Below are positions 24,017-43,163 of a stretch of DNA of 64,000 nt, piece after piece (the first letter of the stretch is position 1; each line of letters opens with the position of its first letter). Position numbers and translations under genes: made by a program. Origin of the DNA: Akkermansiaceae bacterium. GTDB lineage: Bacteria; Verrucomicrobiota; Verrucomicrobiia; Verrucomicrobiales; Akkermansiaceae. The notes below the pieces were generated by a model. The model saw only the letters and a program-made list of their open reading frames with translations, was not told the DNA's origin and did no database searches. Location: NCBI GenBank assembly GCA_049632765.1, contig JBNACB010000006.1:53-64052 (forward strand). The letters are read 5' to 3'.

Positions 24017-25156
24017 TTAGGCCAGGTGTTTGGGAAAATCATGCACCCGCTCGCAGGCCACCTGCTCCATGACTTGCTGTAGCTGCCGCTTGAGCATAGT
24101 CAGGGTGTGGTCACCCCCGTTTTTACCGAGTGCACCGACTCCATACATAGGGGTGCGGCCCATGAAGGTGAAGGCGGCACCGGTGGCAAGCGCGGCAGCA
24201 ACATCAGGACCCGTGCGGATACCTGAATCCATCATGATCGTAATCTGGTCCTTGAACTCCGCGACGAGCTGAGCCAGAGGCACAATGGTAGATTGGCCGG
24301 TATCGAGCTGGCGACCGCCATGGTTGGATACAATGATACCATCAATGCCATTGCGCACGGCCTTCTCGCAGTCCTCGGGATTAACGATGCCCTTGATGAC
24401 AAGCTTGCCCTGCCACTTGTCGCGGATGGCCTTGATCCTGTCCTCAGTGAGTCTTCCAGAGAAAGTCTTGTTCATAAACATCCCCAGATGCTTCATGTTG
24501 AGACCCTTGGGAATATACTCCTTCATGGTTTTAAATTCAGGAGCTCCGGCGAAGAGCTGGCTAAAGGACCAGGTCGGGTGCGTGCACATCTGGAACACAT
24601 TGCGCAAGGTCATGCGTGGTGGAATGGACAGACCGTTTTTAATTTCCTTGGGCCGGTAAGCGAAAGTGGGCGTGTCAGCCAACAGAACCAGAACCTCGTT
24701 ACCAGCTGCCGCAGCACGGTCGAGCAGTTTGTCACGCAACTCATCCTCCGCCGGATGATATAGCTGGAACCATGCGTCACCCTCGGTGATCTCAGCGATC
24801 TTTTCAATACTGGCCGTACCCACCGTACTAAGGATGAAGGGAATGTTGTGCGCCTTGGCGGCAGCCGCGAGAATCTCGCAGGAATTTGGCCACATCAGAC
24901 CCTGAAGGCCGACAGGTGCGATCCCAAAAGGTGCATCGTAAGTTTTGCCAAATAGCTCTGTTTCCTGACTCGCCCCCTTGTAATCCCTGAGGTAGTAGGG
25001 CTTGAGCTGCACTTCGCGAATATCACTGGTATTGCGGCGAAGGTTGACCTCAGAGAAGCAACCTCCATCCAAATAATCGTAAGCAAAACCCGGCATGCGC
25101 CTTCTGGCCTTGGCCATCAGAGCCTCCACAGAGGGATAGTTTGAATTAAATGACAT
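24017..25156 (-). CDS. lldD: FMN-dependent alpha-hydroxy acid (L-lactate) dehydrogenase
   Basis: YDYLDGG, PFGIAP.G, WFQLY, LVIKGI, VSNHGGRQLD and DSGIR.G.D motifs. Confidence 0.85.
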   Translation of the reverse strand: MSFNSNYPSVEALMAKARRRMPGFAYDYLDGGCFSEVNLRRNTSDIREVQLKPYYLRDYKGASQETELFGKTYDAPFGIAPVGLQGLMWPNSCEILAAAAKAHNIPFILSTVGTASIEKIAEITEGDAWFQLYHPAEDELRDKLLDRAAAAGNEVLVLLADTPTFAYRPKEIKNGLSIPPRMTLRNVFQMCTHPTWSFSQLFAGAPEFKTMKEYIPKGLNMKHLGMFMNKTFSGRLTEDRIKAIRDKWQGKLVIKGIVNPEDCEKAVRNGIDGIIVSNHGGRQLDTGQSTIVPLAQLVAEFKDQITIMMDSGIRTGPDVAAALATGAAFTFMGRTPMYGVGALGKNGGDHTLTMLKRQLQQVMEQVACERVHDFPKHLA

Positions 25157-25213
25157 GTTGATAGTGGTTAGGTTTATCGCGGGCTTGATGATATGTGCAC
25201 TCTGGCCTTGAGC

Positions 25214-26998
25214 CTATCCATAGAGCGGGCCGTAATTTTCGCAAGCCCGGAAATCGGCACCCTCCAGTCCATCTGTGCCATGCGCGTTCCATGAGGATGG
25301 GCGGAAGATGCGATCCTCACTGACATTGTGCATATAAACCGGGATTCGCAGCATGGATGCCAAGGTGATGAGATCAGCACCAATGAGACCGTAGCTCATG
25401 ACACAGTGATTGGCTCCCCAGTTGTTCATGACCGTGTAGGTGTCGCGGAAGGCTCCCTTGCCAGTGATGGTTGGGCAGAACCATGTTGTTGGCCATGTCG
25501 GGTTGGTGCGTTCATCGAGAATGTTGTGGACGTCCTCGGGCAGTTCTACAGTAACGCCTTCAGCAATTTGCAGAGCAGGCCCCAGACCTTTGACAAGATT
25601 GAGGCGTGCGATCGTTGCCGGCATGCCCCCCTTGGTCTTGTATCGGGTGCTGAGTCCCCCTCCGGGGAAATATTCAGTGATGGATGGATGCCAGGTTGTG
25701 GCGTCCAGACAGGCCTGCATCTCTTCGTCGGTGATTTCCCAGTGAGGCTTCATGGCGGGTTTGCCGTCTATGCTCATCTGGCCAGTGCCATCAAGAGCAG
25801 CAGGTCCAGAGTTGATCAGATGCAGCAAACCGTCTGCGGCAGCACCTGTGAGCTCGTGGCCGGAAACACGCTTGACCGCATCGGGTGACCAGTAAGTGCG
25901 CAAGTCTGCAAATATCTGGGCAGTGTTGGTCAGCAAGTTGCCGAAGAGCATGGTAACGGCATTGAGAGCATCGTTCTCGGTGGCAAACTGATAGGGAGCG
26001 CGCTTGCCGTTCCAATCAAAAGAAGTCGTAAGGATGGCCTCCATGAAGTCGCCATTGGGATAGTGATCAGTCCACTGGCGCTGCCCCTGGAAACCGCCGC
26101 ATATCGCATTGCGGCCAAGTGCCTCTTCTCCATAACCCATGTCAGCAAGCTTGTCGTTGCCCACCATCAGGTCACGGGCGATAAGTGCCATCTTCACAGA
26201 TGTCTCCCACTCCTGATCAATGTGCTCACGAGAGCGCTGCGTCTCGGGTGAATTGTAGTCTTTGCCTTCCGGGCAGTGTTGCTTCACCCAGGCGAGGGCT
26301 TTTTCATACTCCTCGTGATCGTAGATACCCCGGTCAATCCTGCGTGCCACCTCCGTCATGTCGACAGCCTCCACCCTGATGCCAAGATACCCTTGGAAGA
26401 AGTCGGGATCCACCACCGAACCGGCAATACCCATTGAGGTTCCACCAAGTGACAGGTAGGACTTGCCACGCATCAGGGCAACCGAGATACCGGCCCGACA
26501 GAAGGCAAGAATCTTGTGTGCCACATCATCAGGAATGCTTGTGTCCGTTGATTCCATGACATCACGGCCATAGATTCCGAAAGCGGGAAGCCCTTTCTGA
26601 GTGTGCCCAGCAAGAGCTGCCGCCAGATATACCGCTCCAGGACGCTCCGTGCCATTGAAACCCCATACCGCTTTGGGCGTGTGGGGATCCATATCCATAG
26701 TCTCAGAGCCATAGCACCAGCAGGGAGTCACCGTCAGCGACACTCCCACATTTTCCTTTCTGAACTTGTCCGCACAGGCAGCTGCCTCAGCCACACCACC
26801 AATACAAGTATCCGCGATCACACACTGCACAGGAGAGCCATCAGGATAGCAGAGGTTTTCCGAGATATAGGCAGCCGTGGCCTTGGCCTGGTTCATCGTT
26901 TGGTCCTCCAAGGACTCTCGGACACCGCCAAGACGGCCATCGATGGTTGGACGTATGCCGATTTTCGGCATGTTGTCTTTATTGAATACGGTTTTCAT
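25214..26998 (-). CDS. fucI: L-fucose isomerase
   Basis: [67 protein letters not shown] and WGANH. Confidence 0.97.
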
Positions 26999-27049
26999 AA
27001 AAGTCGTTATAGTGAACGGGTGTTAGTTTTTGGGGCTGTTGGTTATCAA

Positions 27050-28522
27050 TCAGGCCTCGATGAGCTTGAGAAACTTCTGGTATGGTTCTTCCCAGTCCGC
27101 GGAGGACTCGGGAGTGTAGGTGAACGTGTCCATGGAAGCTTCCACTAATGCGCGCCCCGCAGTAATATCCTCTAAATCACCAGTCGCAACCATTTGTGTA
27201 ATAATATTTCCACAGGACGTTGCCTCGACAGGACCGGCGACCACCGGAATACCGAGCGCATCCGCCGTTGCCTGAGCCAAGAGCTCATTTTGTATGCCTC
27301 CACCACCTGCATGCAGTTTATCGAAGGTTCTGCCCGTTCCCCTCTCAAGGAATTCGATGACCTGTCGGTATTTGAGGGCCAGACTCTCCGTCGCGACGCG
27401 CAACAACTGACCCTTGCTCTTGGGCACGACCTGTCCGGTTCTCTCACAGAAATCCATGATTTTCTGCGGCATGTCACCCGGAGTTGCAAAAACACCATCA
27501 TTGGGATCGATGTAAGCCGTGTGCGGCTGAGCCTCCTCCGCCAGACGCGCCAGCTCGGCATAACTCATCTCCTCGCCATGCTCCGCCCAATAGCGGCGGC
27601 ATTCCTGGATGATCCAGAGACCAGAGACGTTGTGCAACAGGCGCGTCGTTTTGTTAACGCCTCCCTCGTTGGAAAGCCCAGCCTCAAGAGCTTCAGCAGA
27701 GACAACCGGCTTTTCTGACTCCACTCCGAGAATGGACCATGTACCTGATGAAAGCCACAATCCCCCCCGCTCCATGGGTAGGCCGGCTACAGCCGAGGCG
27801 GTATCGTGACCAGCGGAGGCCACCACCTTGACGTCATGAGAAATTCCTGCCTTTTCAGCCACTGCGTCTGTTAAAGGCCCCAACACAGTTCCAGAGGACA
27901 CAATGTTACCAAACATCTTGCGTGGCAGGCCGAGGGCATCAATCACATTCCATGCCCAGTCACGCTCCATCGGATTGTAGAGCTGGCTCGTGCTGGTCAC
28001 TGATCTCTCGTTGGCCTGTACCCCACTCAACCAATAAGCCAGAAGATCGGGAGTAAAGAGCAGGCGGTTGGCGATGTCAAAACAAGGGTTTCCCTTCACC
28101 GACTCGGCGAGCAAATGCAGGCTGGTATTGTAGAATGCAGGCTGCACACCAGTGCTGGCAAAAACATCCTCCATCGGGATGCGGGCATCCATTTCCTCCT
28201 GCATCCCCTCAATGCGGGGGTCACGATACTGTCGGTGACCACCGAGCAAGTTGCCCTGCTTGTCGAGCAATGCGCAATCACAACCCCAGGTATCGGTGCC
28301 TACGGATACGATCGCATCACCATATTTCTCGGCCGCTTTGTGCAGACCTTCCTGAATCGACTCGAACAACCCAATGGTATTCCAATAACAACCGCCATTG
28401 ATCTCGACACCATCGTTGGAAAATCGATGAACCTCCTCCAATTGGAGGGTGCTGCCATCATAAACACCGGCCACAAGGCGGCCAGATCCTGCACCGAGGT
28501 CAATTGCGATGTAAACTTGCAT
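27050..28522 (-). CDS. Rhamnulokinase-family FGGY kinase (probable L-fuculokinase here)
   Basis: IAIDLGAGSGR, GTDTWG.D, YRD.R, GHDTASAV, SSGTWS, SNEGG, GLWIIQECR and GPVEAT. It is co-oriented with fucI. Confidence 0.9.
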   Translation of the reverse strand: MQVYIAIDLGAGSGRLVAGVYDGSTLQLEEVHRFSNDGVEINGGCYWNTIGLFESIQEGLHKAAEKYGDAIVSVGTDTWGCDCALLDKQGNLLGGHRQYRDPRIEGMQEEMDARIPMEDVFASTGVQPAFYNTSLHLLAESVKGNPCFDIANRLLFTPDLLAYWLSGVQANERSVTSTSQLYNPMERDWAWNVIDALGLPRKMFGNIVSSGTVLGPLTDAVAEKAGISHDVKVVASAGHDTASAVAGLPMERGGLWLSSGTWSILGVESEKPVVSAEALEAGLSNEGGVNKTTRLLHNVSGLWIIQECRRYWAEHGEEMSYAELARLAEEAQPHTAYIDPNDGVFATPGDMPQKIMDFCERTGQVVPKSKGQLLRVATESLALKYRQVIEFLERGTGRTFDKLHAGGGGIQNELLAQATADALGIPVVAGPVEATSCGNIITQMVATGDLEDITAGRALVEASMDTFTYTPESSADWEEPYQKFLKLIEA

Positions 28523-28524
28523 GA

Positions 28525-28554
28525 TTTTGTTTTTACTGTGTTTTTTTTGTTTTT
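28525..28554. promoter_or_regulatory. Candidate DeoR operator: exact TTTTGTTTTT direct repeat 20 bp apart
   Basis: Copies at 28525-28534 and 28545-28554, upstream of the kinase; the same motif occurs in the deoR/pduL spacer. Confidence 0.55.
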
Positions 28555-28567
28555 CTTGGAATTAAAG

Positions 28568-29326
28568 TCAAGCTTTGATGATGTCCACGCCCATATTCTT
28601 CAAGGATTCCAGTATTCCAGGGTCCGCGTCCTTGGTCGTCACAAGAGTTGTAAGCTGAGAACACTCGGCAAAGAAGAAGGCGGAGCGAGCTCCTATTTTT
28701 GAATCATCTGCGAGCAAACAGACATCCTCGGCAGCGGCAATCACATGCTCTTTAAAAGCTGCCTGGCGCGAGTTGCCCTCACTCACACCCCTCTCAAGAT
28801 CCAGCCCGCTGCCCGAGAAAAACATGCGGTGGATGTTATAGCGATGGAGTGTTCGCTCTGCAACCAGCCCGATCATGGACCTGGAACGACGCTCAAACAA
28901 CCCACCCGTGCAAATCAAATCAATATTTTCAACCCCTGCAAGCGCCTCGACAACGTCCAGGGCATTGGTAATCACAGTGATGTGAAAGCTTGGTAAATAC
29001 TGGGTAATGGTCAGTGCCGTAGAGCTCGCATCAATGAAGATGGTCTCCCCCGGCTGAATTCTCGTGGCCGCCGCCTTGGCAACCGCACTCTTGGCATCGC
29101 GATTGATCAACTGTCTCTCAGTGAGGGAAAGTTCACGAATAACACGCTTGGAAGGGATGGCACCACCATGTGACCTCACCAGAAGGCCTTGCTGCTCAAG
29201 CTGCTCAAAATCCTTGCGGATCGTCTCGTCCGTGACATCAAGCTCCACAGCCATGTCCTTGGTCCTCAGGGATCCGCGATCCTTGAGCGCCTCGAGTATC
29301 TGATTGTGTCTTTCAGCCGCTAACAT
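28568..29326 (-). CDS. DeoR/GlpR-family transcriptional regulator
   Basis: MLAAERHNQIL HTH with VTDETIRKD..LE..GLL.RSHGGA; sensor domain with IFIDASST and VITN. Confidence 0.95.
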   Translation of the reverse strand: MLAAERHNQILEALKDRGSLRTKDMAVELDVTDETIRKDFEQLEQQGLLVRSHGGAIPSKRVIRELSLTERQLINRDAKSAVAKAAATRIQPGETIFIDASSTALTITQYLPSFHITVITNALDVVEALAGVENIDLICTGGLFERRSRSMIGLVAERTLHRYNIHRMFFSGSGLDLERGVSEGNSRQAAFKEHVIAAAEDVCLLADDSKIGARSAFFFAECSQLTTLVTTKDADPGILESLKNMGVDIIKA

Positions 29327-29362
29327 GAGAAATTTGACTAATATTTACCCCAAACCTGAAAA

Positions 29363-29428
29363 TTTGGATTTTTTTTGATTTATTTTTGTTTTCTTTGTTT
29401 TTTCTTTGTTTTTGGTTGACCTGTCAAC
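29363..29428. promoter_or_regulatory. Divergent deoR/BMC control region with phased TTTG(T/A)TTT repeats and a GTTGAC-CT-GTCAAC palindrome
   Basis: Repeat G positions are 29366, 29377, 29388, 29397 and 29408; the palindrome spans 29415-29428. Confidence 0.55.
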
Positions 29429-29467
29429 ACTATCATGCAAAAAACACCCCGTCATCCACAAAAATTT

Positions 29468-30148
29468 ATGTCGTCTCCTCAACAAAACAGCGTCCCCAGA
29501 GCAGTCATCGAACATATGGTACGGGAGCAGGTATACAAGGAAATGGGTCTTTCCCTGCCCGAACAAGCCAAGGCACCCAAGGGCCTCGTGGTGAATATCA
29601 GTGCCCGTCACTGCCATCTGACCCAGGAAGCGGTGGAGGTTCTTTTCGGGCCAGGTCACCAGCTCACACCGCACAAGTGGCTATATCAGGAAGGTGCATA
29701 CGCCGCCAAGGAATCCGTGACACTTATCGGACCTCGCAGCCGGGTCATTTCCAATTTGCGCATCCTCGGTCCTTGCCGTGACCTGAACCAGGTTGAGCTG
29801 GCATTCACCGACGCCATCTCCCTCGGCTTCGACATTCCCATCCGCATGTCGGGTGATGTGGCCGGAACCCCGGGCTGCATGCTGATGGGCCCTAACGGAT
29901 ATTTCAAAATGGACGAGGGCGTCATCCGCGCCCAGCCCCACGTGCACATGCACCCTGACGATGCCGCATTCTACGGAGTGAAGCACCTCGACACCATGAA
30001 AATGAAGGTTCACAGCCCTTGTTCGGTCACCTTCGACAACATCGTGGTCCGCGTTGACGAAAGCTTTAACCTGGAGGCCCACATCGACACCGATGAGGGC
30101 AACGCATGCGGCCTCCGCCCTGACACCTTCTGCGAGCTCATCAAGTGA
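29468..30148 (+). CDS. pduL: Phosphate propanoyltransferase PduL with N-terminal encapsulation-peptide-like helix
   Basis: VNISARHCHLT, LRILGP.R...QVEL..TD...LG...P.R.SG....TPG and AQPHVHM. Start placed at MSSPQQ. Confidence 0.93.
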   Translation: MSSPQQNSVPRAVIEHMVREQVYKEMGLSLPEQAKAPKGLVVNISARHCHLTQEAVEVLFGPGHQLTPHKWLYQEGAYAAKESVTLIGPRSRVISNLRILGPCRDLNQVELAFTDAISLGFDIPIRMSGDVAGTPGCMLMGPNGYFKMDEGVIRAQPHVHMHPDDAAFYGVKHLDTMKMKVHSPCSVTFDNIVVRVDESFNLEAHIDTDEGNACGLRPDTFCELIK

Positions 30149-30203
30149 TGCATCTCGCACAACACCACTAACCCACAACCAACAAACACAACCCAACAAT
30201 ACC

Positions 30204-30473
30204 ATGAGCAAAGCACTCGGAATGATTGAAACCAAAGGCTACGTCGGCAGCGTAGAGGCCGCGGATGCGATGGCCAAAGCCGCCACCGTTGACGTGACCA
30301 AACAAGTACAAATCGGAGCGGGATTTCTTACCATCCTCATCCAAGGAGACGTTGGCAGCGTCAAAGCTGCTGTTGACGCTGGAGCAGAAGCAGCCGGCCG
30401 CGTAGGCGAACTCGTTAGCGCCCACGTAATCGCCCGCCCTGCCCCTGAGCTCCTCAAACAATTTGATCTCTAA
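30204..30473 (+). CDS. BMC shell hexamer (BMC-H) 1
   Basis: ALGMIETKG...EAADAMAK...GDVGSVKAAVDAGA...HVIARP. Confidence 0.95.
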   Translation: MSKALGMIETKGYVGSVEAADAMAKAATVDVTKQVQIGAGFLTILIQGDVGSVKAAVDAGAEAAGRVGELVSAHVIARPAPELLKQFDL

Positions 30474-30517
30474 TCTGACAGGAACTCTTTCAGAACAACT
30501 ACATACCAAATACTACC

Positions 30518-30796
30518 ATGGCTAAAAAAGCACTCGGAATTATTGAAGCAAAAGGGCTTGTCTCCCTGATCGAGGCATCAGACGCCGCCATCAAGGCAGC
30601 AGATGTCACCATGACTGGCTGGGACAAGATCGGCTCAGGCCTCGTCTGTGGATTCTTCACAGGTGACGTTGCCGCTGTCAAAGCTGGTGTTGACGCTGGT
30701 GCGGAAGCAGCTGCTCAGGTTGGCGAAGTCAACTCTGTGCTTGTTATTCCCCGCCCACACGAAGACCTCGGCCAAATGGGGCCTTGGATCGCCTAA
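30518..30796 (+). CDS. BMC shell hexamer (BMC-H) 2
   Basis: ALGIIEAKG...EASDAAIK...KIGSG...GDVAAVKAGVDAG...IPRPH. Confidence 0.95.
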   Translation: MAKKALGIIEAKGLVSLIEASDAAIKAADVTMTGWDKIGSGLVCGFFTGDVAAVKAGVDAGAEAAAQVGEVNSVLVIPRPHEDLGQMGPWIA

Positions 30797-30830
30797 CCAC
30801 AATTAAGGCAATCAACGACTCTCCATCATC

Positions 30831-32006
30831 ATGCACATCCTCATCGCCAACCTCGGATCCACATCCTTCAAATACCGCCTCTATGAGATGGACGGTAAGA
30901 ACGGGAATGTGATCGCCTCGGGCGGCTTTGAGCGTGTCACTGATTATGCAGATGTCATCAATCAGGCCCTGGCTGAACTTATCGACCAGGGTAATCTGAG
31001 TTCAACCAGCGACATTGATGCCGTTGGTTTTAAAACCGTGCTCGGTAAAGATCTGAGCGGTTGTGTGGATGCCGATGATCAAGTCATCAATGCGCTCGAG
31101 GGCTTCCGTGAGGTAGCCCCGGCGCATAATCCTCCATATGCCGAGGGTATTCGCCAATTTCGCCAAATCCTGCCCAATGCACGGCTGGTTGCTCTTTTCG
31201 AGACAGCCTTCTACCAGTGGATTCCCCAAGCAGCCTCGCGCTATGCCCTACCCCAATCCTGGCATGATGCAGGTATTCGCCGCTACGGATTCCACGGTGC
31301 CAGCCACAAATACGTTGCGGAACGCTCAGCCGAACTGATGGGCCGTGAGGACGTGGCTGAATCTGTGAGGGGTCTTTATGTCGATGGCCCAAAGGACATT
31401 TCCGGTGAGCCCTTGCGAGTAGTCTCATTCCATCTTGGCGGCAGCAGTTCTGTCACAGGTATCCGCAATGGTATCGCCATCGGTACAAGTATGGGTTTCT
31501 CGCCGCAGAGCGGGCTACCACAAAACAACCGTGTTGGCGATCTGGACTCTGGCGCCCTCCCCTACGCCACCAAGGCACTGGGCATCTCCATGGAGGAAGC
31601 GGAGCGTCAACTCACCAAGGAATCCGGCCTGCAAGGTGTATCCGGAGTCAGCAATGATCTGCGAGACATCTGCGATGCAGCCGATGACGGCAACAGTAAC
31701 GCACAACTTGCCTTGGACATGCTGGTGAACTCTGCACGTCACTGGGCCTCCAGCTACCTCTTCGATCTGGGAGGACTCGACACCCTCGTCTTCACAGCTG
31801 GGATTGGAGAAAACAACCCATGGCTCAGGACGGCAATCTGCGCCGGACTGGAAAACTTCGGCGTTGAAATTGATGAAGAAAAAAACGCCGCCTGCATGGC
31901 CGATGAGGCAATCATCAGCACTGACAGTTCCAAAGTTAAAATCATGGTGATCCCTGCCAACGAGGAACTCGTTCTCGCACGCGAGGTATACCGCAAAGTA
32001 AGCTGA
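30831..32006 (+). CDS. ackA: Acetate-kinase-family protein (BMC-associated, probable lactate/acyl-phosphate kinase)
   Basis: IANLGSTSFKY, RRYGFHG.SH, HLG, TSMGF.P, FTAGIGEN and IPANEE; several active-site positions differ from canonical AckA. Confidence 0.9.
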   Translation: MHILIANLGSTSFKYRLYEMDGKNGNVIASGGFERVTDYADVINQALAELIDQGNLSSTSDIDAVGFKTVLGKDLSGCVDADDQVINALEGFREVAPAHNPPYAEGIRQFRQILPNARLVALFETAFYQWIPQAASRYALPQSWHDAGIRRYGFHGASHKYVAERSAELMGREDVAESVRGLYVDGPKDISGEPLRVVSFHLGGSSSVTGIRNGIAIGTSMGFSPQSGLPQNNRVGDLDSGALPYATKALGISMEEAERQLTKESGLQGVSGVSNDLRDICDAADDGNSNAQLALDMLVNSARHWASSYLFDLGGLDTLVFTAGIGENNPWLRTAICAGLENFGVEIDEEKNAACMADEAIISTDSSKVKIMVIPANEELVLAREVYRKVS

Positions 32007-32085
32007 TAGCTCCGATCCACCTTACATACTTCAAATTTTCTATCCAACTAACCAAACAAACTAACAAACAAACCAAACAAATACC

Positions 32086-32379
32086 ATGGCTATACAAGCA
32101 ATAGGAATACTCGAAACCCGCGGCCTTGCAGGCCTTGTCAATGGCACTGACGCCATGCTCAAAGCTGCAAATGTAAAGCTCGCAGGCCCCATGCGCCAAA
32201 TCGGAAGCGCTATGTGCAACGTTGTCGTCGAAGGTGACGTCGCTGCCGTCAAAGCTGCTGTCGATGCTGGTGCCTCCGCTGCAGAACAAATTGGTGAAGT
32301 CCTCAGTGCTCACGTCATCGCACGTCCTGACGCCTCCACCTCTGACGTGCTTCCCAAGCGCGCTGCTGCCAAGAAGTAA
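32086..32379 (+). CDS. BMC shell hexamer (BMC-H) 3 with basic C-terminal tail
   Basis: AIGILETRG...TDAMLKAANV...GDVAAVKAAVDAG...HVIARP, then tail KRAAAKK. Confidence 0.95.
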   Translation: MAIQAIGILETRGLAGLVNGTDAMLKAANVKLAGPMRQIGSAMCNVVVEGDVAAVKAAVDAGASAAEQIGEVLSAHVIARPDASTSDVLPKRAAAKK

Positions 32380-32418
32380 GACGTTTTGCTGGCCTGTAAT
32401 GGCCGGCGGAACCGTCTT
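32378..32418 (+). other. Long intra-operonic hairpin without U-tract
   Basis: 17-bp stem (3 G:U pairs, 1 bulge), 32378-32394 / 32401-32418, loop TGTAAT. Confidence 0.6.
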
Positions 32419-34571: not shown

Positions 34572-34576
34572 ATCAT

Positions 34577-34882
34577 ATGCGAATTGGCCATGTCATTGGA
34601 AAAGTTACAACCAACGTCCAGGAGGAAGCCTTCCGGGGTGGCCGCTGGCTGGTTGTCAATCCTGTCGATACCGAACAAATCAATACCTGCATTGAAAAGC
34701 AGCCCAGCCTCACCAAGCAACCATCTCTTGTTATCTACGACAATGTCGGTGCTGGAGTGGGCGATATCGTCGGCTTTGTCGAAGGTGCCGAGGCTACAGC
34801 TCCCTTTGCAGGCCCCACACCGATCGATGCGATCAGCCTAGCCATCTTTGACACCCTCAAATACGTAGCACCAGCTCAATAA
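34577..34882 (+). CDS. BMC shell pentamer (BMC-P) 3
   Basis: MRIGHVIGKVT...G.RWL...VIYDNVGAGVGD.V...EG.EA..PF...TPIDA....I.D. Confidence 0.9.
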   Translation: MRIGHVIGKVTTNVQEEAFRGGRWLVVNPVDTEQINTCIEKQPSLTKQPSLVIYDNVGAGVGDIVGFVEGAEATAPFAGPTPIDAISLAIFDTLKYVAPAQ

Positions 34883-34897
34883 TCACACTCTCAAACC

Positions 34898-36013
34898 ATG
34901 AAGAAAGTTTACACGGCAAAAGACATCAAGGACCTCATTTCACAGGGCGTTTCTCTCGACAGCATTCCAGCCGGAACCATTCTGACGCCATCAGCCAAAG
35001 ATGCCATCAAAGATTTTGGGGGAGGCGCCACCACGCGCCAGGCAGCTGCATCAGGCAAGACTTCAGACCGTTTCCCGCCGCTGCCTCCCGGAGTTCCCAC
35101 TGTTCCGCCCGAGCCAGTGGTTCCCAGCATGGAATATGACTGGGTAGAGGGTGGAGATCCGACTAATCCGGAGGAAATCCAGCGCTTCTTCCACTCCCCC
35201 GAGATCATGAAGCTCAAGGATGAGATGATCCGCACGGCACGTAAAATGTGGCAACGTAACATGGTCGACGGCAATGGCGGTAACATCACCGTTCGTGTCG
35301 GTGATAACCTCGTGCTCTGCACTCCTACTCTCCGCTCCAAGGGGGAGGTCATGGCAGATGAAATCGCTCTTATTGACCTGGATGGCAATCAGAAGGCTGG
35401 CTGGCGCAAGCGCACAAGTGAGGCCAATACTCACCTTGCCATCATGAAGGTTCAGCCCAAGGCAAAGAGTGTTATCCACGGCCATCCACCCTACTCCACG
35501 GCTTTCGCGGTTGCTAATGTAGAGCCGCCGACTTGCCTTTGCTCAGAAGTCGAGGTCTTCACTGGTGCGATCCGCCTGGTGGAATACCACACACCCGGTA
35601 GCAAGGAAATCTGCGATGCCGTGGCAAAAATCGGCAAGGACAATCCTGCTATCCTACTCGCAAACCACGGTGTCATGGCATGGGGCAGTGATGTCGAGGA
35701 TGCTTACTGGAAAATGGAGAATATGGAAACTGCTTGCCAGACCATCTGGGTTGCGAGCCAACTTAATGGCGGCAGGCTTCCAACGATTCCATCAGACAAA
35801 ATGCGTGAGATCTTCGATATCCGCAAATCCATTGGCATGGAGGACCCTCGTGTGGACCTGAAGGAATGCGAGCTATGCCAGAATGATAACTTCCACCCCG
35901 GTGCATATTGTGAAGTCGCCCCTGCCACAAAGGACGTCGGCTCCTATCTCAACCCTGAAGCGGAGAAAATTGTCAAACAGCTCACCGACGAAATCGCCGG
36001 CAAGATCTCCTAA
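34898..36013 (+). CDS. Class II (Zn) aldolase A, fuculose-1-phosphate aldolase family, with N-terminal extension and C-terminal encapsulation-peptide-like helix
   Basis: GNGGNITVR, TPT, RTSE, HGHPP and NHGV (catalytic Glu and Zn-His triad); C-terminal EAEKIVKQLTDEIAGKIS. Confidence 0.92.
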   Translation: MKKVYTAKDIKDLISQGVSLDSIPAGTILTPSAKDAIKDFGGGATTRQAAASGKTSDRFPPLPPGVPTVPPEPVVPSMEYDWVEGGDPTNPEEIQRFFHSPEIMKLKDEMIRTARKMWQRNMVDGNGGNITVRVGDNLVLCTPTLRSKGEVMADEIALIDLDGNQKAGWRKRTSEANTHLAIMKVQPKAKSVIHGHPPYSTAFAVANVEPPTCLCSEVEVFTGAIRLVEYHTPGSKEICDAVAKIGKDNPAILLANHGVMAWGSDVEDAYWKMENMETACQTIWVASQLNGGRLPTIPSDKMREIFDIRKSIGMEDPRVDLKECELCQNDNFHPGAYCEVAPATKDVGSYLNPEAEKIVKQLTDEIAGKIS

Positions 36014-36056
36014 AAAGTGCTCTTTCGGAAGCAAACATCGACCCAGTTAGCAACTC

Positions 36057-37034
36057 ATGAAACAGGTATACACAGCCAAGCAAATTGAAGACTTGATAGC
36101 AGGGGGCCAGGGTGTGAGCTCGTTACCAACGGATGCAGTTCTCACTCCATCTGCCAAGGACTACCTCAAGGAGTTGGAAAACCCAGGCTTCGGCACACAA
36201 AGACGGGAGCGTGAATTTGAAGAACCCAGCCTTCCTGACTACGAATATAAATGGACACCCGGTAGCGACCCCAAAACCCAGGGTGAAATCCTCGACTTCT
36301 TTTATTCTCCAGAGATCCATGTGCTCAAGGAGCGCATGTGCGATCTCGGCAAGAGGATGTGGCAGCGCAACTACACCGACGGCAATGGCGGCAACATGAC
36401 CATTCGTGTCGGCGACAACCTGGTTCTCTGCACCCCCACCCTCATCTGCAAGGGCTTTATGAAGCCAGAGGACATGTGTCTGGTGGATCTTGACGGCAAA
36501 CAACTTGCCGGCAAGCGCCCTCGCACGAGTGAGTGCATGACCCACCTTGCCATCATGAAGCGCCAGCCCAAGTGCAAGGCTGTCTGCCACTCTCACCCAC
36601 CCCATGCCACGGCCTTTGCTGTTGCCGGTGTGCGTCCTCCCCTCTGCATGATTCCGGAGGCTGACGTCTTTCTCGGCGAGATTGGCATGGCTCCCTATCG
36701 CACCCCCGGAACACCGGATGTTGCTGATATTGTCGGTGAAACAGGCGTAAAACATATGTCCGTGCTCATGCTTAACCACGGGGTTATCACATGGGGAGAC
36801 CATATTGAGGAAGCCTACTGGCGCATGGAAAACACCGAAGCTCTTTGCCGCACTGTCTGGGTCGCCACCCAGCTCAACAACGGAAAAATGCTCACCATGA
36901 CTGATGAGCAGGAGCGGGATCTCATCGAAATCCGCAAAGCCCTCGGTATGGAGGATCACCGCGAACACCTCCCCAATGACCAGCTCTGTAACAACGATCA
37001 ATTTAGACCCGGTGTTTCCTGTAACTGCCAATAG
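36057..37034 (+). CDS. Class II (Zn) aldolase B, paralog of aldolase A lacking the C-terminal helix
   Basis: GNGGNMTIR, TPT, RTSE, HSHPP and NHGV; ends at ...FRPGVSCNCQ. Confidence 0.92.
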   Translation: MKQVYTAKQIEDLIAGGQGVSSLPTDAVLTPSAKDYLKELENPGFGTQRREREFEEPSLPDYEYKWTPGSDPKTQGEILDFFYSPEIHVLKERMCDLGKRMWQRNYTDGNGGNMTIRVGDNLVLCTPTLICKGFMKPEDMCLVDLDGKQLAGKRPRTSECMTHLAIMKRQPKCKAVCHSHPPHATAFAVAGVRPPLCMIPEADVFLGEIGMAPYRTPGTPDVADIVGETGVKHMSVLMLNHGVITWGDHIEEAYWRMENTEALCRTVWVATQLNNGKMLTMTDEQERDLIEIRKALGMEDHREHLPNDQLCNNDQFRPGVSCNCQ

Positions 37035-37090
37035 TCAGGCAAACACTTCCGATCTAACGAATATATAAACAACCAACCTAATAGAATACC

Positions 37091-38020
37091 ATGAAAGCAA
37101 CTATCATAGGCGGTGGCGGCCGTGTAGGATCCAATGCCGCTATTTGTCTCCAGTGCGCCGGTGTCGTCTCGGAAATTCAAATTCTGGATGCCAACCAGGA
37201 TCTCGCGGACGGTGAAGCCCTCGATCTTTTACACGGTGCCTCCTGCCTGCATGACCAGCGCATTTACTCAGGTGACTACAACCGTGCAGCAGACTCCGAC
37301 ATTTTCATCATTACCGCCGGCCTGCGCCGCAAGCCTGACGAAAGCCGTCTGGATCTCATCAACCGCAACGTCGGCCTGTTTTCACAGATTCTCAACAGTA
37401 TCAAAACCGCGGGAATGAAGCAGGATGCCATCGTATTCGTTGTTTCCAACCCTGTAGACATTCTTACGCATCTTGCCGTCAGCTTCCTCGGCCTCCCCCC
37501 TGCCCAGGTGATCGGACTTGGCACCATGCTTGATACCGCACGCTTCCGCTCACTCATTGCCAATGACCTCGATCTTGCTCCTACTCAGGTCAAGGCCCTC
37601 ATCCTCGGCGAGCACGGTGACACCATGCTTCCCGTTTGGTCATCAGCCACTGTGGGTGGTCTGCCACTGACCGGAGTGAAAGGCTGTGATGCCAACTACC
37701 AGCGCCAGATCTTTGAGCGCACCAAGAAAAGTGGTGCCGAAGTCATTGCCCGCAAGGGTGGAGCCGGCTGGGCGGTTGGTGCTACCATTGCAGAAACCGT
37801 GCACGCCATAGCTCTCGACAAGAAGCAGCTCCTGCCCGTCTCCAGCCTCCAGAATGGCTGCTACGGCCTCAAGGATGTCTGCCTGAGTGTTCCCACCATC
37901 GTAGGACGCAGCGGTGCTGAGAAGCATGTAGAGATCGAACTCTGGCCCAAGGAAAAGCAAGCTCTGCAGGCTTCGGCACGCGCTCTCAAAGAGATGCTCA
38001 AGAACGTGGCCTCTGTCTAG
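37091..38020 (+). CDS. L-lactate/malate dehydrogenase family NAD-dependent oxidoreductase
   Basis: GGGGRVG, ILD, TAGLRRKPDESRLDL..RN, VSNPVD, GTMLDTARF and GEHGD. Confidence 0.93.
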   Translation: MKATIIGGGGRVGSNAAICLQCAGVVSEIQILDANQDLADGEALDLLHGASCLHDQRIYSGDYNRAADSDIFIITAGLRRKPDESRLDLINRNVGLFSQILNSIKTAGMKQDAIVFVVSNPVDILTHLAVSFLGLPPAQVIGLGTMLDTARFRSLIANDLDLAPTQVKALILGEHGDTMLPVWSSATVGGLPLTGVKGCDANYQRQIFERTKKSGAEVIARKGGAGWAVGATIAETVHAIALDKKQLLPVSSLQNGCYGLKDVCLSVPTIVGRSGAEKHVEIELWPKEKQALQASARALKEMLKNVASV

Positions 38021-38046
38021 GTTCTCAAAACGCGATACTATCAATC

Positions 38047-38085
38047 AAAAATCCCGCTGGAGAAAAGCTCCAGCGGGATTTTTTT
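38047..38085. terminator. Bidirectional intrinsic terminator between the BMC operon and fucP
   Basis: Perfect 16-bp inverted repeat AAAAATCCCGCTGGAG (38047-38062) / CTCCAGCGGGATTTTT (38068-38083), with A- and T-tracts. Confidence 0.9.
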
Positions 38086-38115
38086 GTACGGTTGAAACTG
38101 GATTGGGAAAACGAC

Positions 38116-39606
38116 TTACTCTGCAGCCTTTCTGCGGTTCCAGCAGAGCAGGCCATAGCCAGCGATAACAATAAAGCAAAGCACAGGCAGATAGAACGAT
38201 CCCCGGGTCGCGGTTGTTCCCATGAAGCCATCCATATCGAGAATCTGACCCTGCAGGCGGGGCATGAAAGCTCCACCAACAATGGCAAAGATCAGTCCTG
38301 CAGATCCCAGCTTGGCATCCTCACCGACACCATCGAGTGCCAGACCATAGATAGTCGGGAACATCAATGACATGCAGGCGGAGATCGCAATCAGCGAATA
38401 AAGTCCAGCCATACCCTGAAGGTAGATGGCTCCCAAGGTGCAGCCAATGCCGGCAAGACTCAGGACAAAAAGCAATCTTCCGGGCGAAACATACTTGAGG
38501 AAGAAAGTGCAAATAAAACGACTACAAAGGAAAATAACCATCGCGAGAATGTTATGGTTCTGCGCGGTTGCCTTGTCGATACCGAGCTCGTTCTCAGCAT
38601 ACTGGATGATAAAGGTCCAGCACATGATCTGTGCACCCACATAGAAGGTTTGAGCGACTACGCCACCCACATAGCGTGGATTACTGAACAAGCGACCGAC
38701 TGTCCTGCCGAAATGAAGGTCGTGGAGGTCTCCCTTCGGGCTGGTGTCGGGCATTTTTGTAACGGCAAAAAGCAGCATTACACCAATGACGACAAAACCA
38801 ATCACCATATAAGGTAAGGACACGATCTTTAAATCATGTTGTTGCAGCTCGGCGTGGGTCTTGCCCTGGAAGCTCTCAATTTTACCATCCTTGAAATCAA
38901 CAAGGGCATTAGAAGCCACATCCTTGGCATCAGGACCAAGATTTGCCACATAGGCCTTCACATTCGGATCGTTGGTGCGCTCACGCTCCTTGGATTTAAG
39001 CATCGGCAAGATGTCCAACTCTTCTCTTTGTTCAGCTGCAGGCTGAAGGTCTGCATAGAAACCGTTTACATCACTTTTGAAGTCCTCCACTTCAATGGTG
39101 GAGAGAATGACAGTGCCGGCAATGAACATGCCCGTGAGTGAGCCCATCGGGTTAAATGCCTGGGCAAAGTTGAGCCGCCGGGTGGCGGTTTCCGCTGAAC
39201 CCATGGAAAGAATATAGGGATTCGCAGTGGTTTCAAGGAAGGCAAGACCAAAGGTCAGGATATAAAGGGCAATAATAAAGAGGTTGAAGTTAGCACCGGA
39301 TGCTGCGGGGATCGACAATAACGCACCCGCGGCATATAGAAGTAAGCCCACGATGATACCCGATTTGTAGGAAAACTTACGAATGAAAATGGCAGCTGGA
39401 AGCGCCATGGTTGCGTAACCTCCATAAAATGCCATTTGCACCCATGTGCTTTGGGCATTGTCGATAACGAAGACGTCTTTGAAGACCGCCACTAATGGGT
39501 TGGTGACATCATTGGCAAAGCCCCAGAGGGCAAAGAGACTGGTTACTAGAATAAAGGGGAGAAGGAATTTCTTCTCAACGACGGCGCTTGGTTTAATGGC
39601 TGACAT
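38116..39606 (-). CDS. fucP: L-fucose:H+ symporter (MFS)
   Basis: PFILVTSLFALWGFAND, Q.AFYGGY..MA.PA, LETTANPY, RRLNFAQAFNP.G, FYVGAQIMCW and SLMFPTIY. Confidence 0.93.
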   Translation of the reverse strand: MSAIKPSAVVEKKFLLPFILVTSLFALWGFANDVTNPLVAVFKDVFVIDNAQSTWVQMAFYGGYATMALPAAIFIRKFSYKSGIIVGLLLYAAGALLSIPAASGANFNLFIIALYILTFGLAFLETTANPYILSMGSAETATRRLNFAQAFNPMGSLTGMFIAGTVILSTIEVEDFKSDVNGFYADLQPAAEQREELDILPMLKSKERERTNDPNVKAYVANLGPDAKDVASNALVDFKDGKIESFQGKTHAELQQHDLKIVSLPYMVIGFVVIGVMLLFAVTKMPDTSPKGDLHDLHFGRTVGRLFSNPRYVGGVVAQTFYVGAQIMCWTFIIQYAENELGIDKATAQNHNILAMVIFLCSRFICTFFLKYVSPGRLLFVLSLAGIGCTLGAIYLQGMAGLYSLIAISACMSLMFPTIYGLALDGVGEDAKLGSAGLIFAIVGGAFMPRLQGQILDMDGFMGTTATRGSFYLPVLCFIVIAGYGLLCWNRRKAAE

Positions 39607-39795
39607 AGTGTTCAGTAGTTGTCTGTGGATGATGTTTTACCCAAGTGTCTCGCCCAGAAAATCCGAACAAGATAAACGAGTAATGAACATTGGCGGAGAC
39701 TACCAATCTGAGAGCAACTGACCAGTATTTTCATCACCCTTTTAAGGGATACAAAGATTCCCGCAAAAGCGTGACGACCACTGTGCCTGCGTGCA

Positions 39796-40227
39796 CTAAA
39801 CTGGAGTTACACCCTTTTTGAGGATGATATTGGCGTACTTGTTCACGTCCCCAGTGGCCACAACGGCATGAGCCTTCTGCACCCGCTCATAGAAGGCAAA
39901 GCGCTCGAGTCTTGAAATCTTCGGATTAAGCTCGCTGTGGCGCTCAATGGCTGCGGCATATGAACCCTCGACCTTGGGATCCAGACTGTCCCCTTCCACA
40001 GCCTCCATGGTGATCACAGGAGCCGGGTCATAGGCATCGAGCTCAAACAAAGGCAAAATAGCGTCCAGCATATCCGGCACACTCAGGCCATCAGCACGAA
40101 TCACCGTATCGTTAAACTGGTGACCAGGGAAATGACCGTCCGCAAGGACGAGCTCCTCGCCATGGCCCATGCGGCACATCACAGCCAGCAACTCCGGAGA
40201 CAAGAGGGGTGAGATTCCTTTTAACAT
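39796..40227 (-). CDS. fucU: L-fucose mutarotase (RbsD/FucU family)
   Basis: [15 protein letters not shown]...[22 protein letters not shown] and [10 protein letters not shown]. Confidence 0.93.
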
Positions 40228-40285
40228 AAACCGGATACTAGGAAAGCGGCTGTTGCATGCCAGCCAATTTTTCATAACGGTTAAG

Positions 40286-40318
40286 AAAAAGCCCCGCCGG
40301 ACACCTCCGGCAGGGCTT
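40286..40318 (-). terminator. Intrinsic terminator of ppdK
   Basis: GCCC.GCCGG / CCGGC.GGGC stem, followed on the minus strand by a U-tract (AAAAA at 40286-40290). Confidence 0.7.
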
Positions 40319-40346
40319 GAGATTTGATAGCTGGCTGATCAGTTCA

Positions 40347-43163
40347 TTAACTGATCTCACCGCGGGCCATGCCCTTCTCCTCAAGTGCGGCCTGCGCTGC
40401 AGCAAGCTTGGCAATGGGGATACGGAAAGGTGAGCAGGAAACGTAGTTGAGGCCTGTGCGGTGACAGAACTTAACGGACTCAGGGTCACCACCGTGTTCA
40501 CCACAGATACCGACCTTGAGTTTCGCCTTGGTCTTGCGACCGCGATCCACACCGATTTCAACAAGCTGGCCAACCCCGGTCTGGTCGAGGCTTGCAAATG
40601 GATTGTTATTAACAACCTCAGCATCCTGATACGCAGGCAGGAACGAACTGGAGTCATCACGGCTCAGACCGAGACAGGTCTGGGTGAGGTCGTTGGTTCC
40701 AAAGGAGAAGAAGTCTGCGTGCTCAGCAACGGCGTCAGCGGTAAGGGCAGCGCGTGGTATCTCGATCATGGTGCCAACGCTGTACTTGAGCTGGCTCTTC
40801 TTGAGGCCCAGCTTCTTGCGGACCTCCGCAGCAGCCTCGTCAATGACGGCTTTCTGCAGCTCAAGCTCCTTGGCATAGGATACCAGGGGAACCATGATTT
40901 CAGGCACCACCTTGATCTTCTTGGCCTGAACCTCAGCAGCTGCCTCGAGAATGGCGGTAGCCTGCATCTTGGTAATCTCAGGATAGACGATTCCAAGACG
41001 GCAACCACGGTGGCCGAGCATTGGGTTCTCCTCGTGCAGAGCATTGATGCGGCTCTTGATCTTGGCCGGGCTAACCTTGATCTTCTTGGACAGAGCATTG
41101 ATCTGCTTGTTGTCCAAAGTACCGATGAACTCGTGCAATGGCGGGTCCAGCAAACGAATAGTCGCAGGACGGCCCTCAAGCGCCTCAAAGATACCAATGA
41201 AGTCCTTCTTCTGGTAAGGCAGCAACTTTTTGAGAGCTTTGGCGCGTCCAGCGTCATCCTCGGCGAGGATCATCTGGCGCACGGAATCAATACGGTTGCC
41301 CTCGAAGAACATGTGCTCGGTACGGGTGAGGCCGATTCCCTCTGCACCAAATGCGATGGCGTTTTTAACCTGCCCTGGCGTGTCCGAGTTGGTGCGCACA
41401 CCAAGTTTGCGAAGTTTGTCAGACCACTGCATCAGCTGGGTGAATTTCTTGTAGGTCTCGCTGCGCTTGGCAGATGCCTTGCCTTCGATGAGTCCCTGAA
41501 TCACCGATGATGGTGAAGAACTGATCTCACCGGCATAAACATTACCTACGAAGCCGTTCAAGGAGAGGAAGTCTCCCTCTTTGAGTGTTACACCATTACC
41601 GCTGAGGGTCTTCTTGCCGTAATCGATGTCCATGTTGTGTGCACCGCATACGCAAACCTTACCCATCTGGCGGGCTACGAGGGCAGCGTGTGAGGAGGCA
41701 CCACCACGTGTGGTGAGAATTCCCTCTGCAGCAATCATGCCCCTGAGATCCTCCGGAGATGTTTCCTGGCGGGTCAGAATGACCTTTTGTCCCCGGGCTG
41801 CAGCAGCAACCGCAGCTTCCGCAGTGAAGTAAATCTGGCCTGAAGCAGCACCAGGACCAGCGGGAAGACCATTACCAACCTTGGTCGCTTTCTTTTCCCC
41901 AGCGGAATCGAAAATCGGAGACAGAAGGTGGCTCAAGTCCTCAGCGGGAATACGCAGAATTGCCTCTTCCTTCTTGATGAGGCGCTCCTTGACCATGTCC
42001 AGGGCGATGTTCACAGCAGCGAATCCGGTGCGCTTACCATTACGGGTCTGCAGCATCCATAGCTTGCCTTCCTCAATGGTGAACTCAACGTCCTGAACGT
42101 CACGGAAATGCTTCTCGAGAATCTTACGGATTTTGAGCAACTCCTTGTGGGACTTTGGAAGGTCCTTGGCCATCTTGGCAATGGGCTTGGGGGTGCGCAC
42201 ACCGGCCACCACATCCTCCCCCTGGGCATCGATGAGATATTCACCGTAAAATACATTTTCACCAGTAGCGGGGTCACGAGTGAAAGCAACACCGGTGCCT
42301 GATCCCTTGCCAGTGTTACCAAAGACCATGGCCTGAACGTTCACGGCCGTGCCCCAAGCTGCAGGAATGTTATACTTCTGGCGATAAACAATCGCGCGGT
42401 CGTTGTTCCATGAATCAAAGACAGCATTAACGGCTCCCTTGAGCTGATCCATTGGATTCTCCGGGAAGTTCTTACCCGAACGTTGCTTGATGAGCTTCTT
42501 GAACTCACCAACAACCCAGCGCAGGTCCTTCTCCTTGAGGCCGGAGTCATCCTTCACCTTTGCTGTAGCCTTCGCCTTGTCGAGGATGACCTCGTAAGGA
42601 TCATGGTGCTCACCAGCGTGAGCTTCCACACCCATGACAACACTTCCATACATCTGAAGGAAGCGGCGATAGGAGTCCCAGGCAAATTTGGCGTTGCCTG
42701 TCTTCTTCGCAAGGGCCTCTACAACCTGATCGTTGATTCCGAGGTTGAGAATAGTGTCCATCATGCCTGGCATGGATTCACGGGCACCGGAGCGGACGGA
42801 AAGCAATAATGGGTTGTTGAGATCACCAAACTTCTTACCCATGGCCTGTTCCACTTTGGCAATGTTCGCCTCGATCTCGGCGTCAAGTGTCTTGGGGTAT
42901 TTCTTACCGTGATCGTAGTAGTAGGTGCAGACCTCGGTGGTAATGGTGAAGCCGGCAGGAACGGGGATTCCAATGAGGCCCATCTCGGCGAGGTTGGCTC
43001 CCTTACCCCCGAGGAGGTTCTTCTGTGATCCGTCTCCGTCGGCTTTTCCGCCTCCGAAAAAGTAAACGTGTTTCTTTGATTTGCGAGCGACCTTCTTGTT
43101 GGTCTTGCGGGCAGCTGACTTGGATGCAGCTGTCTTTGCGGTCTTGCGTTTAGCAGTAGCCAT
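40347..43163 (-). CDS. ppdK: Pyruvate, phosphate dikinase
   Basis: [42 protein letters not shown], phospho-His motif [21 protein letters not shown] and GICGEHGG. Start placed at MATAKRK. Confidence 0.97.

Follow-up and report, generated by a model that had tools for sequence, protein, structure and literature searches.

Bacterial microcompartments (BMCs) of the Planctomycetes and Verrucomicrobia (PVM) type are central to the turnover of marine fucoidan and deoxy-sugars. The type is known from work on Planctopirus limnophila, where it was characterised, and from descriptions of marine Verrucomicrobiota (PMC4207490, PMC8857213, PMC8217296), 285 such loci were catalogued in 2021 (PMC8217296), and an ancillary acetate kinase and a DeoR regulator belong to the locus type (Axen 2014, PMC4207490). 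According to Axen 2014 (PMC4207490, citing Erbilgin 2014), PVM loci have no alcohol dehydrogenase (AlcDH), and a gene of the lactate/malate dehydrogenase (LDH/MDH) family is their only possible regenerator of NAD+. The way in which these compartments regenerate NAD+ without an AlcDH has so far only been assumed. Here we describe the PVM locus in a 64,000-nt stretch of DNA (the window, to which all positions refer), which is contig C6 of a 2.17-Mb marine Akkermansiaceae metagenome-assembled genome (MAG, 90% complete), and we concentrate on the NAD-dependent LDH/MDH-family enzyme encoded at the end of its shell operon. What is new is the MDH-type R102 site of this enzyme, its nesting in a clade in which every sequence has R102, its occurrence in PVM genomes only (30/30), and a canonical MDH paralog in the same operon position in other lineages. 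The best overall explanation, to which we give about an even chance, is a PVM locus in which an MDH-type enzyme recycles NAD+ by reducing oxaloacetate to malate. In a literature search on a role of MDH in the recycling of NAD+ in BMCs no relevant paper beyond Axen 2014 was found.

The locus is almost certainly a canonical PVM-type BMC locus for catabolism of L-fucose/L-rhamnose. Every PVM feature that can be tested in sequence is present: a class II aldolase, an acylating aldehyde dehydrogenase (AldDH) together with PduL, an acetate kinase homolog (AckA), DeoR, shell proteins of the BMC-H type and a BMC-P triplet without BMC-T, a gene with LDH/MDH Pfam domains instead of an iron-containing alcohol dehydrogenase (Fe-ADH), and the host phylum. 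The closest relatives of the AldDH, up to 92-93% identical, all belong to Akkermansiaceae or Verrucomicrobiales. We compared 120 loci, 80 from Akkermansiaceae and 40 from other families of Verrucomicrobiae. The core order DeoR / PduL-H-H-AckA-H-P-AldDH-P-P-aldolase was invariant in both sets, and in nearly all of the loci a DeoR gene lies beside PduL. The P. limnophila pvm cluster and the loci of marine Verrucomicrobiota have all this in common with the window, including the lack of BMC-T and Fe-ADH and the LDH/MDH-family gene at the operon end. The window adds tandem aldolases, an LldD-like gene in the fucI operon, and fucP-fucU with ppdK directly downstream, additions which are common only to its closest relatives (L005, L006, L009 and L031).

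The absence of an AlcDH is thus not new, because it has already been published for PVM loci (PMC4207490). Neither this absence nor the shell-operon gene of the LDH/MDH family is peculiar to the window, both being known from PVM loci.

Active site and phylogeny of the NAD-dependent enzyme

Residue 102 separates LDHs from MDHs, and Gln102 is the mark of LDHs. The change Q102R, made by Wilks et al. in 1988, is said to turn Bacillus LDH into an MDH. When the enzyme of the window is aligned to the Bacillus LDH structures 1ldb and 1ldn, its position 102, which is residue 80 of the protein, holds Arg in place of Gln. The substrate loop AGLRRKPDESRLDL aligns to AGANQKPGETRLDL of Bacillus LDH (AGLRRKPDESR vs AGANQKPGETR), R109, D168, R171 (carboxylate clamp) and H195 are unchanged, and Ala takes the place of Thr246. 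All 36 PVM-adjacent orthologs (64-100% identity) have R101, R102, R109, D168, R171, H195 and A246 without exception. R102, R109, D168, R171 and H195 were also found in a 62%-identical cluster with the loop AGLRRQPNESR, which lies at the end of a PVM operon in TARA contigs and bears the NCBI label Planctomycetota/Pirellulaceae. Among family models, the enzyme scores 287.8 bits with the MDH subfamily model PRK06223 (cut-off 283), 226.8 bits with the MDH equivalog TIGR01763 (cut-off 351.85) and 300.3 bits with the L-LDH equivalog TIGR01771, narrowly under the cut-off of 303.55.

Homologs were sought among 1.84 billion representatives, and a tree was built from 121 full-length matches. The PVM clade is nested in it within a 30-member clade with R102 in every sequence (support 0.95). 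The nearest relatives outside BMC loci share the RR/A246 loop and stand in contexts which look like housekeeping ones, for example beside polyprenyl synthase and lptF/G. We read the enzyme as a dedicated PVM accessory which retains a full MDH-type site for 2-oxoacids. Because R109, D168, R171 and H195 are all kept, a 2-oxoacid would be a more conservative substrate than lactaldehyde, and we judge it somewhat probable that the acceptor is indeed a 2-oxoacid and not lactaldehyde. R102 and the nesting in the all-R102 clade favour oxaloacetate/malate over pyruvate/lactate; that the acceptor is oxaloacetate specifically is a close call, which in our estimate falls just short of even.

A first-pass annotation, made from the letters of the stretch, had assigned two lactate-type dehydrogenases to it. 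For the NAD-dependent one this has to be corrected, as R102 and the R102 clade point to oxaloacetate/malate. Its proposal that this enzyme reduces a 2-oxoacid agrees with the retained R109, D168, R171 and H195, but R102 favours oxaloacetate over the pyruvate of a lactate dehydrogenase.

In the library of representatives, a related LDH/MDH domain was also seen at the C-terminus of much longer polypeptides, P0244 (720 aa), P0248 (684 aa), P0263 (573 aa) and P0388 (776 aa).

Distribution in PVM genomes and a second recruitment of MDH

Distribution was examined across the class in 201 evenly sampled genomes, of which the 70 with an AldDH ortholog of at least 53% identity were taken as PVM genomes. 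Orthologs of the NAD-dependent enzyme are at least 60% identical to it, and the remaining family members at most 41%. Such orthologs are present in 30 of the 70 PVM genomes and in none of the 131 others (Fisher p = 1e-16, with no phylogenetic correction), in 27 of the 30 at about 2-4.5 kb from the AldDH gene. The operon-terminal position of the MDH-type gene is held across 18 families and two phyla. A separate housekeeping MDH of the SF1 type is encoded on contig C12 of the window's genome, which rules out that the gene of the locus provides the only MDH of this cell.

In other lineages a canonical SF1-type MDH with the catalytic set intact lies directly 3' of the aldolase gene and on the same strand. 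Twelve loci of the Luteolibacter type and the nine genomes sampled from family f15 all have this arrangement. In six of the nine this MDH is a second copy beside the housekeeping MDH; there, too, it cannot be the sole MDH of the cell. Two SF1-type copies within one 21-kb PVM locus were seen in two Akkermansiaceae MAGs, L048 (at 4804 and 13260) and L035 (at 3081 and 13160).

A strong Fe-ADH is encoded in 31 of the 31 PVM genomes that lack both the LDH-like gene and an adjacent MDH of the f15 type, and in 14 of the 39 others (Fisher p = 3e-9, a suggestive contrast that is uncorrected for phylogeny or genome size, the absence of the adjacent MDH having been checked directly in 17 of the 31). That these enzymes adjoin the PVM loci which have no LDH-like gene was ruled out, since no Fe-ADH match is adjacent to the AldDH in any of the 70 PVM genomes. 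Because the Fe-ADH is present in all 31 genomes without an MDH-type enzyme in the locus, the propanediol route, where it is present, seems to use a real AlcDH. Together these patterns suggest three alternative routes of NADH reoxidation across PVM genomes, two of them with MDH-type enzymes.

As to the window's own genome, no gene with PF00465 (Fe-ADH) or PF08240 (zinc-containing AlcDH) and no tandem-domain BMC-T gene was found in the locus, as the first-pass annotation had said of a trait which is already in the literature. Across the assembly, matches to the Fe-ADH domain are limited to AroB and one phosphonate-type fragment at a contig end, and the sole ADH_N match is a quinone oxidoreductase of the PIG3 type. 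Profile searches of the MAG, which is nine-tenths complete, found no FucO-like gene, and the assembly has no BMC shell genes outside the PVM locus. The phosphonate-type fragment is on contig C36, outside the window, where a phosphonopyruvate decarboxylase (459 bits) is followed by the Fe-ADH cut by the contig end (16656-18467). Phosphonates, for example 2-hydroxyethylphosphonate or compounds of the 2-aminoethylphosphonate type, are probable products of the organism.

Organization of the locus

Genes were called from an open reading frame (ORF) listing, Pfam profile searches and NCBIfam models, and every gene which the first-pass annotation had listed for 24017-43163 was recovered at its place. 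The right end given there, 43163, is an internal ATG, and ppdK reaches 43208. On the minus strand deoR, the FGGY kinase gene, fucI and lldD follow each other with intergenic gaps of 45-57 bp. A plus-strand run (29435-38020) diverges from deoR and comprises pduL, two BMC-H genes, the ackA-like gene, a third BMC-H gene, BMC-P, the AldDH gene, two further BMC-P genes, two aldolase genes and the LDH/MDH-family gene. Convergent on this shell operon are fucP, fucU and ppdK (38116-43208, minus strand). The features are:

24017-25156, minus strand: LldD-like FMN-dependent alpha-hydroxyacid dehydrogenase, FMN_dh (PF01070, 387.7 bits), candidate for the step from L-lactate to pyruvate
25214-26998, minus strand: FucI, L-fucose isomerase (Fucose_iso_N1, N2 and C domains, E 1e-92 to 2e-44)
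27050-28522, minus strand: FGGY sugar kinase, rhamnulokinase-like (FGGY_N and FGGY_C)
28568-29326, minus strand: DeoR-family regulator, divergent from the shell operon (HTH_DeoR and DeoRC)
29435-30148, plus strand: PduL-type phosphotransacylase (PF06130, 238.7 bits over residues 53-227)
about 30213-30473, plus strand: first BMC-H (PF00936, 86.2 bits; the ORF is open from 30054 and the BMC domain starts at its residue 54)
30518-30796, plus strand: second BMC-H (PF00936, 86.6 bits)
30831-32006, plus strand: AckA-like protein of the acetate kinase family (PF00871, 319.1 bits; TIGR00016, 308.5 bits, above the cut-off of 293.4)
32086-32379, plus strand: third BMC-H (PF00936, 82.4 bits)
32432-32779, plus strand: first BMC-P, vertex protein (PF03319, 100.6 bits)
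32803-34293, plus strand: CoA-acylating AldDH of the PvmJ type (NF011927, 591.7 bits, above the cut-off of 403)
34317-34571, plus strand: second BMC-P, vertex protein (PF03319, 82.1 bits)
34577-34882, plus strand: third BMC-P, vertex protein (PF03319, 62.7 bits)
34898-36013, plus strand: class II aldolase A, the signature enzyme (PF00596, 157.7 bits, residues 109-282)
36057-37034, plus strand: class II aldolase B, paralog of A (PF00596, 156.1 bits)
37091-38020, plus strand: NAD-dependent LDH/MDH-family dehydrogenase of the PvmO type, 309 aa (Ldh_1_N and Ldh_1_C)
38116-39606, minus strand: FucP, L-fucose:H+ symporter (TIGR00885, 505.8 bits, above the cut-off of 280.4)
39796-40275, minus strand: FucU, L-fucose mutarotase (PF05025, 136.5 bits)
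40289-40318, minus strand: intrinsic terminator between ppdK and fucU (13-bp stem with 9 G-C pairs, then TTTTCTT)
40347-43208, minus strand: three-domain pyruvate, phosphate dikinase, PPDK (TIGR01828, 1276.8 bits, above the cut-off of 843.45)

The FGGY kinase scored 397.4 bits with the rhamnulokinase model TIGR02627 (cut-off 528) and 139.6 bits with the fuculokinase model; it is presumed to be a fuculose/rhamnulose 1-kinase, closer to rhamnulokinase than to fuculokinase. Aldolases A and B are 47% identical and both have N-terminal extensions of about 90-100 aa, starting MK(K/Q)VYTAK..TPSAKD. In the locus comparison such a tandem pair was seen only in the closest relatives.

The termini of the enzymes were inspected for encapsulation signals. 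PduL has the N-terminal extension PRAVIEHMVREQVYKEM, an encapsulation-peptide-like helix which is followed by a linker. The N-terminus of the AldDH is DQDTLRNVVENVIQQL, a putative encapsulation peptide followed by a Pro/Ala linker. Aldolase A combines its N-terminal extension of about 100 aa with a C-terminal amphipathic helix, NPEAEKIVKQLTDEIAGKIS. In all three enzymes the terminal helix is amphipathic and has a linker next to it, in the manner of encapsulation peptides. No encapsulation-peptide-like terminal helix was found at the inspected termini of aldolase B, the AckA-like kinase and the MDH-type enzyme.

Several other genes were noticed in the course of the locus comparison. Directly 3' of the PVM operon, past the aldolase or the LDH-like gene, a conserved gene whose product has about 405-460 aa and matches no Pfam family was seen in 13 of the 40 loci, which represent several families of Verrucomicrobiae (L085, L089, L091, L094, L099, L100, L102, L108, L109, L112, L113, L114 and L121). 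The copy in L085 has 428 aa and is on the plus strand, its ORF beginning 192 bp past the aldolase; the protein was not found in the window's genome. A 730-aa fusion of class II aldolase and short-chain dehydrogenase (RhaEW-like) is encoded near PVM loci L099, L105, L106, L108, L024, L059, L052, L033, L075 and L048 and is a cytosolic route to lactaldehyde or lactate beside the compartment. In the Planctomycetota PVM loci L126-L128 (TARA contigs) a 242-aa protein with no Pfam domain is encoded at 5925-6653, between the second and the third BMC-P gene. Just past ppdK, at 43438-46246 of the window, genes for a polysaccharide export protein (Poly_export/SLBB) and a chain-length regulator of the Wzz/tyrosine kinase type form the start of an exopolysaccharide cluster, which is unrelated to the PVM locus.

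Lactate oxidation and the neighbouring ppdK gene

The LldD-like protein falls under the curated cut-offs (288.3 bits vs 376 for PRK11197, 255.6 vs 550 for NF033901). Its closest solved structures, aligned end to end, are L-lactate oxidase and membrane-associated (S)-mandelate dehydrogenase. It is the product of the sole FMN_dh gene found in the genome, and no LutB was found there. Orthologs are present in seven of the 201 genomes, four of them without PVM, and show no enrichment in PVM genomes, which rules out that LldD is a PVM-specific accessory. Adjacent to a PVM locus it was seen in six of 43 informative loci, namely in the window's closest relatives and in Roseibacillus only. In four loci of other families lutA-lutB lie in the same place, downstream of the FGGY kinase gene. 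That the unrelated LutAB takes the place of LldD supports a coupling of the step from lactate to pyruvate to the PVM pathway. LldD is a lineage-specific add-on outside the PVM core, and it is likely, judging from its family and position, that it oxidises the lactate product to pyruvate. This role had also been proposed in the first-pass annotation, and it gains from the place of the gene as the last of the deoR-kinase-fucI operon, from LutAB in the equivalent place elsewhere and from the lack of LutB in the genome.

The same annotation had counted ppdK as part of the fucose system, which we could not uphold. The terminator at 40318-40289 is the strongest terminator-like site in 23800-43500, and as it lies between the genes, co-transcription of ppdK with fucU-fucP was judged unlikely. 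Three of the 45 informative Akkermansiaceae loci have ppdK adjacent to the PVM genes, against none of the 40 loci from other families. In the relative L007 it is nearby with no fucP-fucU between. Most probably ppdK is a housekeeping neighbour kept by inherited synteny, outside the regulon. As judged by its profile match the PPDK is bona fide, and as pyruvate kinase is also encoded in the MAG, a gluconeogenic role is plausible for it. At its N-terminus (43085-43208) the PPDK has about 45 aa of basic, Lys/Ala-rich sequence before the profile match starts, a tail which is unusual for PPDK.

Proposed mechanism and its alternatives

Going by family assignments, FucP would import fucose and FucU would interconvert its anomers, FucI and the FGGY kinase would lead to fuculose-1-phosphate, and the class II aldolases would cleave it to dihydroxyacetone phosphate and L-lactaldehyde. 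Inside the shell, as the published PVM model and the encapsulation-peptide-like termini suggest, AldDH would oxidise lactaldehyde to lactyl-CoA with formation of NADH, and PduL would convert lactyl-CoA to lactyl-phosphate and thereby recycle CoA. The AckA-like kinase would then form lactate and ATP. Active-site residues, phylogeny and comparative genomics point to the MDH-type enzyme of the operon end as the one that would reoxidise NADH by reducing oxaloacetate to malate. Once outside the shell, this malate would be oxidised again by the separate housekeeping MDH, with the reducing equivalents passing to the respiratory chain, and LldD would take lactate to pyruvate.

A more general form of this proposal can be put forward only tentatively, as less probable than not. 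PVM compartments as a group may recycle lumenal NAD+ by an oxaloacetate/malate shuttle across the shell, a bacterial analogue of the mitochondrial malate shuttle, instead of giving up half of the aldehyde as alcohol. Such a shuttle would have been recruited at least two times and from different MDH subfamilies. Planctomycetota and many Verrucomicrobiota would have the LDH-like PvmO clade with R102, and the loci of f15 and of the Luteolibacter type the duplicated SF1-type MDH. An unlinked Fe-ADH would serve lineages that have neither of the two. As LldD or LutABC would oxidise the lactate product, all six carbons of fucose would be retained and the electrons passed to respiration.

Several points weigh against recycling by oxaloacetate reduction. 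The NAD-dependent enzyme is missing from 40 of the 70 PVM genomes, so the organelle does not depend on it. The streamlined genus g18 has a single MDH, the one beside the locus, a case which fits plain neighbourhood with a housekeeping gene. The specificity proposed for the enzyme depends on one well-known specificity residue and on phylogeny. Moreover, the enzyme falls in the "intermediate" zone between LDH and MDH (234 bits to Thermotoga LDH vs 197 to the best MDH structure), and such sequences can have mixed specificity. As it has neither an N- nor a C-terminal extension, its sequence gives no sign of encapsulation. We regard action in the lumen as possible, with the balance leaning somewhat to the other side. 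PduQ-type AlcDHs of other metabolosomes have no encapsulation peptides and are encapsulated all the same. Finally, the published model predicts 1,2-propanediol, with dismutation of lactaldehyde yielding this alcohol and lactyl-CoA, from which lactate is then formed (PMC6620236).

This last model, in which the LDH/MDH-family enzyme is the core AlcDH and reduces a second lactaldehyde to 1,2-propanediol, with dismutation to lactate and propanediol as the outcome, survives best among the alternatives, although we consider it unlikely. It is found in Axen 2014 (PMC4207490), citing Erbilgin 2014, and is repeated by Ravcheev 2019 (PMC6620236) and Orellana 2021 (PMC8857213). The enzyme is the only NAD-dependent oxidoreductase in the locus besides AldDH, and the missing FucO-like gene agrees with such a role. 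On the other hand, the carboxylate-binding R171 and R102/R109 are invariant across two phyla while lactaldehyde has no carboxylate, a canonical MDH takes the equivalent operon position in other lineages, and all 31 PVM genomes without an MDH-type enzyme in the locus have an Fe-ADH elsewhere, as against 14 of 39 with one. We also know of no member of the LDH/MDH superfamily that reduces aldehydes. The idea of a 2-oxoacid as acceptor is better supported than the published assumption of a lactaldehyde reductase. If the enzyme should be a lactaldehyde reductase after all, this would be a new activity for the LDH/MDH superfamily.

Less probable still is a cytosolic MDH-type enzyme with no part in lumenal recycling, which would provide capacity for the tricarboxylic acid cycle or anaplerosis or balance cytosolic NADH during growth on deoxy-sugars, with NAD+/NADH crossing the shell or being recycled otherwise. 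The lack of an extension like those of AldDH, PduL and aldolase A would be explained by it, as would the sole MDH of g18 and the 40 PVM genomes with no locus-encoded copy. It accords poorly with an occurrence limited to PVM genomes, with an operon-terminal position across 18 families and two phyla and with the presence of the extra copy beside a housekeeping MDH, and the encapsulation of PduQ-type AlcDHs without such peptides takes weight from the missing extension. Equally improbable is a true LDH which reduces pyruvate, with a lactate/pyruvate shuttle to LldD at the membrane and PPDK forming phosphoenolpyruvate in the same regulon: L-LDHs are the best matches among solved structures, the TIGR01771 score is just under its cut-off, LldD is in the adjacent operon and ppdK is adjacent in the three closest informative relatives, but Arg102 is present in all orthologs, which branch as a clade from within R102 sequences, an LldD ortholog is missing from the great majority of the 30 genomes that encode the NAD-dependent enzyme, ppdK and fucU have a strong terminator between them, and 42 of 45 Akkermansiaceae loci and 40 of 40 loci of other families have no adjacent ppdK.

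If the enzyme is an oxaloacetate reductase, as we prefer to read it, the aerobic PVM pathway need not excrete 1,2-propanediol, and it would be the first proven case of a metabolosome that sends reducing equivalents out by a metabolite shuttle. The pores of the shell would then have to pass C4 dicarboxylates, and engineered synthetic compartments could gain a carbon-sparing way of cofactor recycling.

Comparison with known systems

The LldD-like protein has the FMN_dh fold in common with LldD of E. coli, and in other PVM loci LutAB, known from the LutABC system of Bacillus, lies in the corresponding place beside the FGGY kinase gene. Unlike E. coli LldD, the protein of the window is under the NCBIfam cut-offs for LldD, and its orthologs are rare and not specific to PVM.

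With LDH-like MDHs (type 3, or the "intermediate group") the NAD-dependent enzyme has R102, R109, D168, R171 and H195 in common and a place in the all-R102 clade. It differs from them in its loop G-L-R-R-K-P-D-E-S-R-L-D-L, which is LDH-like past position 102, in the extra R101 and Ala246, and in being encoded only in PVM loci and as an extra copy.

The role proposed for it is the same as that of PduQ and EutG in Pdu and Eut metabolosomes, where AldDH-derived NADH is reoxidised by enzymes which likewise have no obvious encapsulation peptide. In contrast to these Fe-ADHs, the PVM enzyme has the Rossmann LDH/MDH fold, and it is predicted to reduce a 2-oxoacid brought in from outside the compartment instead of the aldehyde which the pathway itself forms, so that no carbon would be lost as alcohol.

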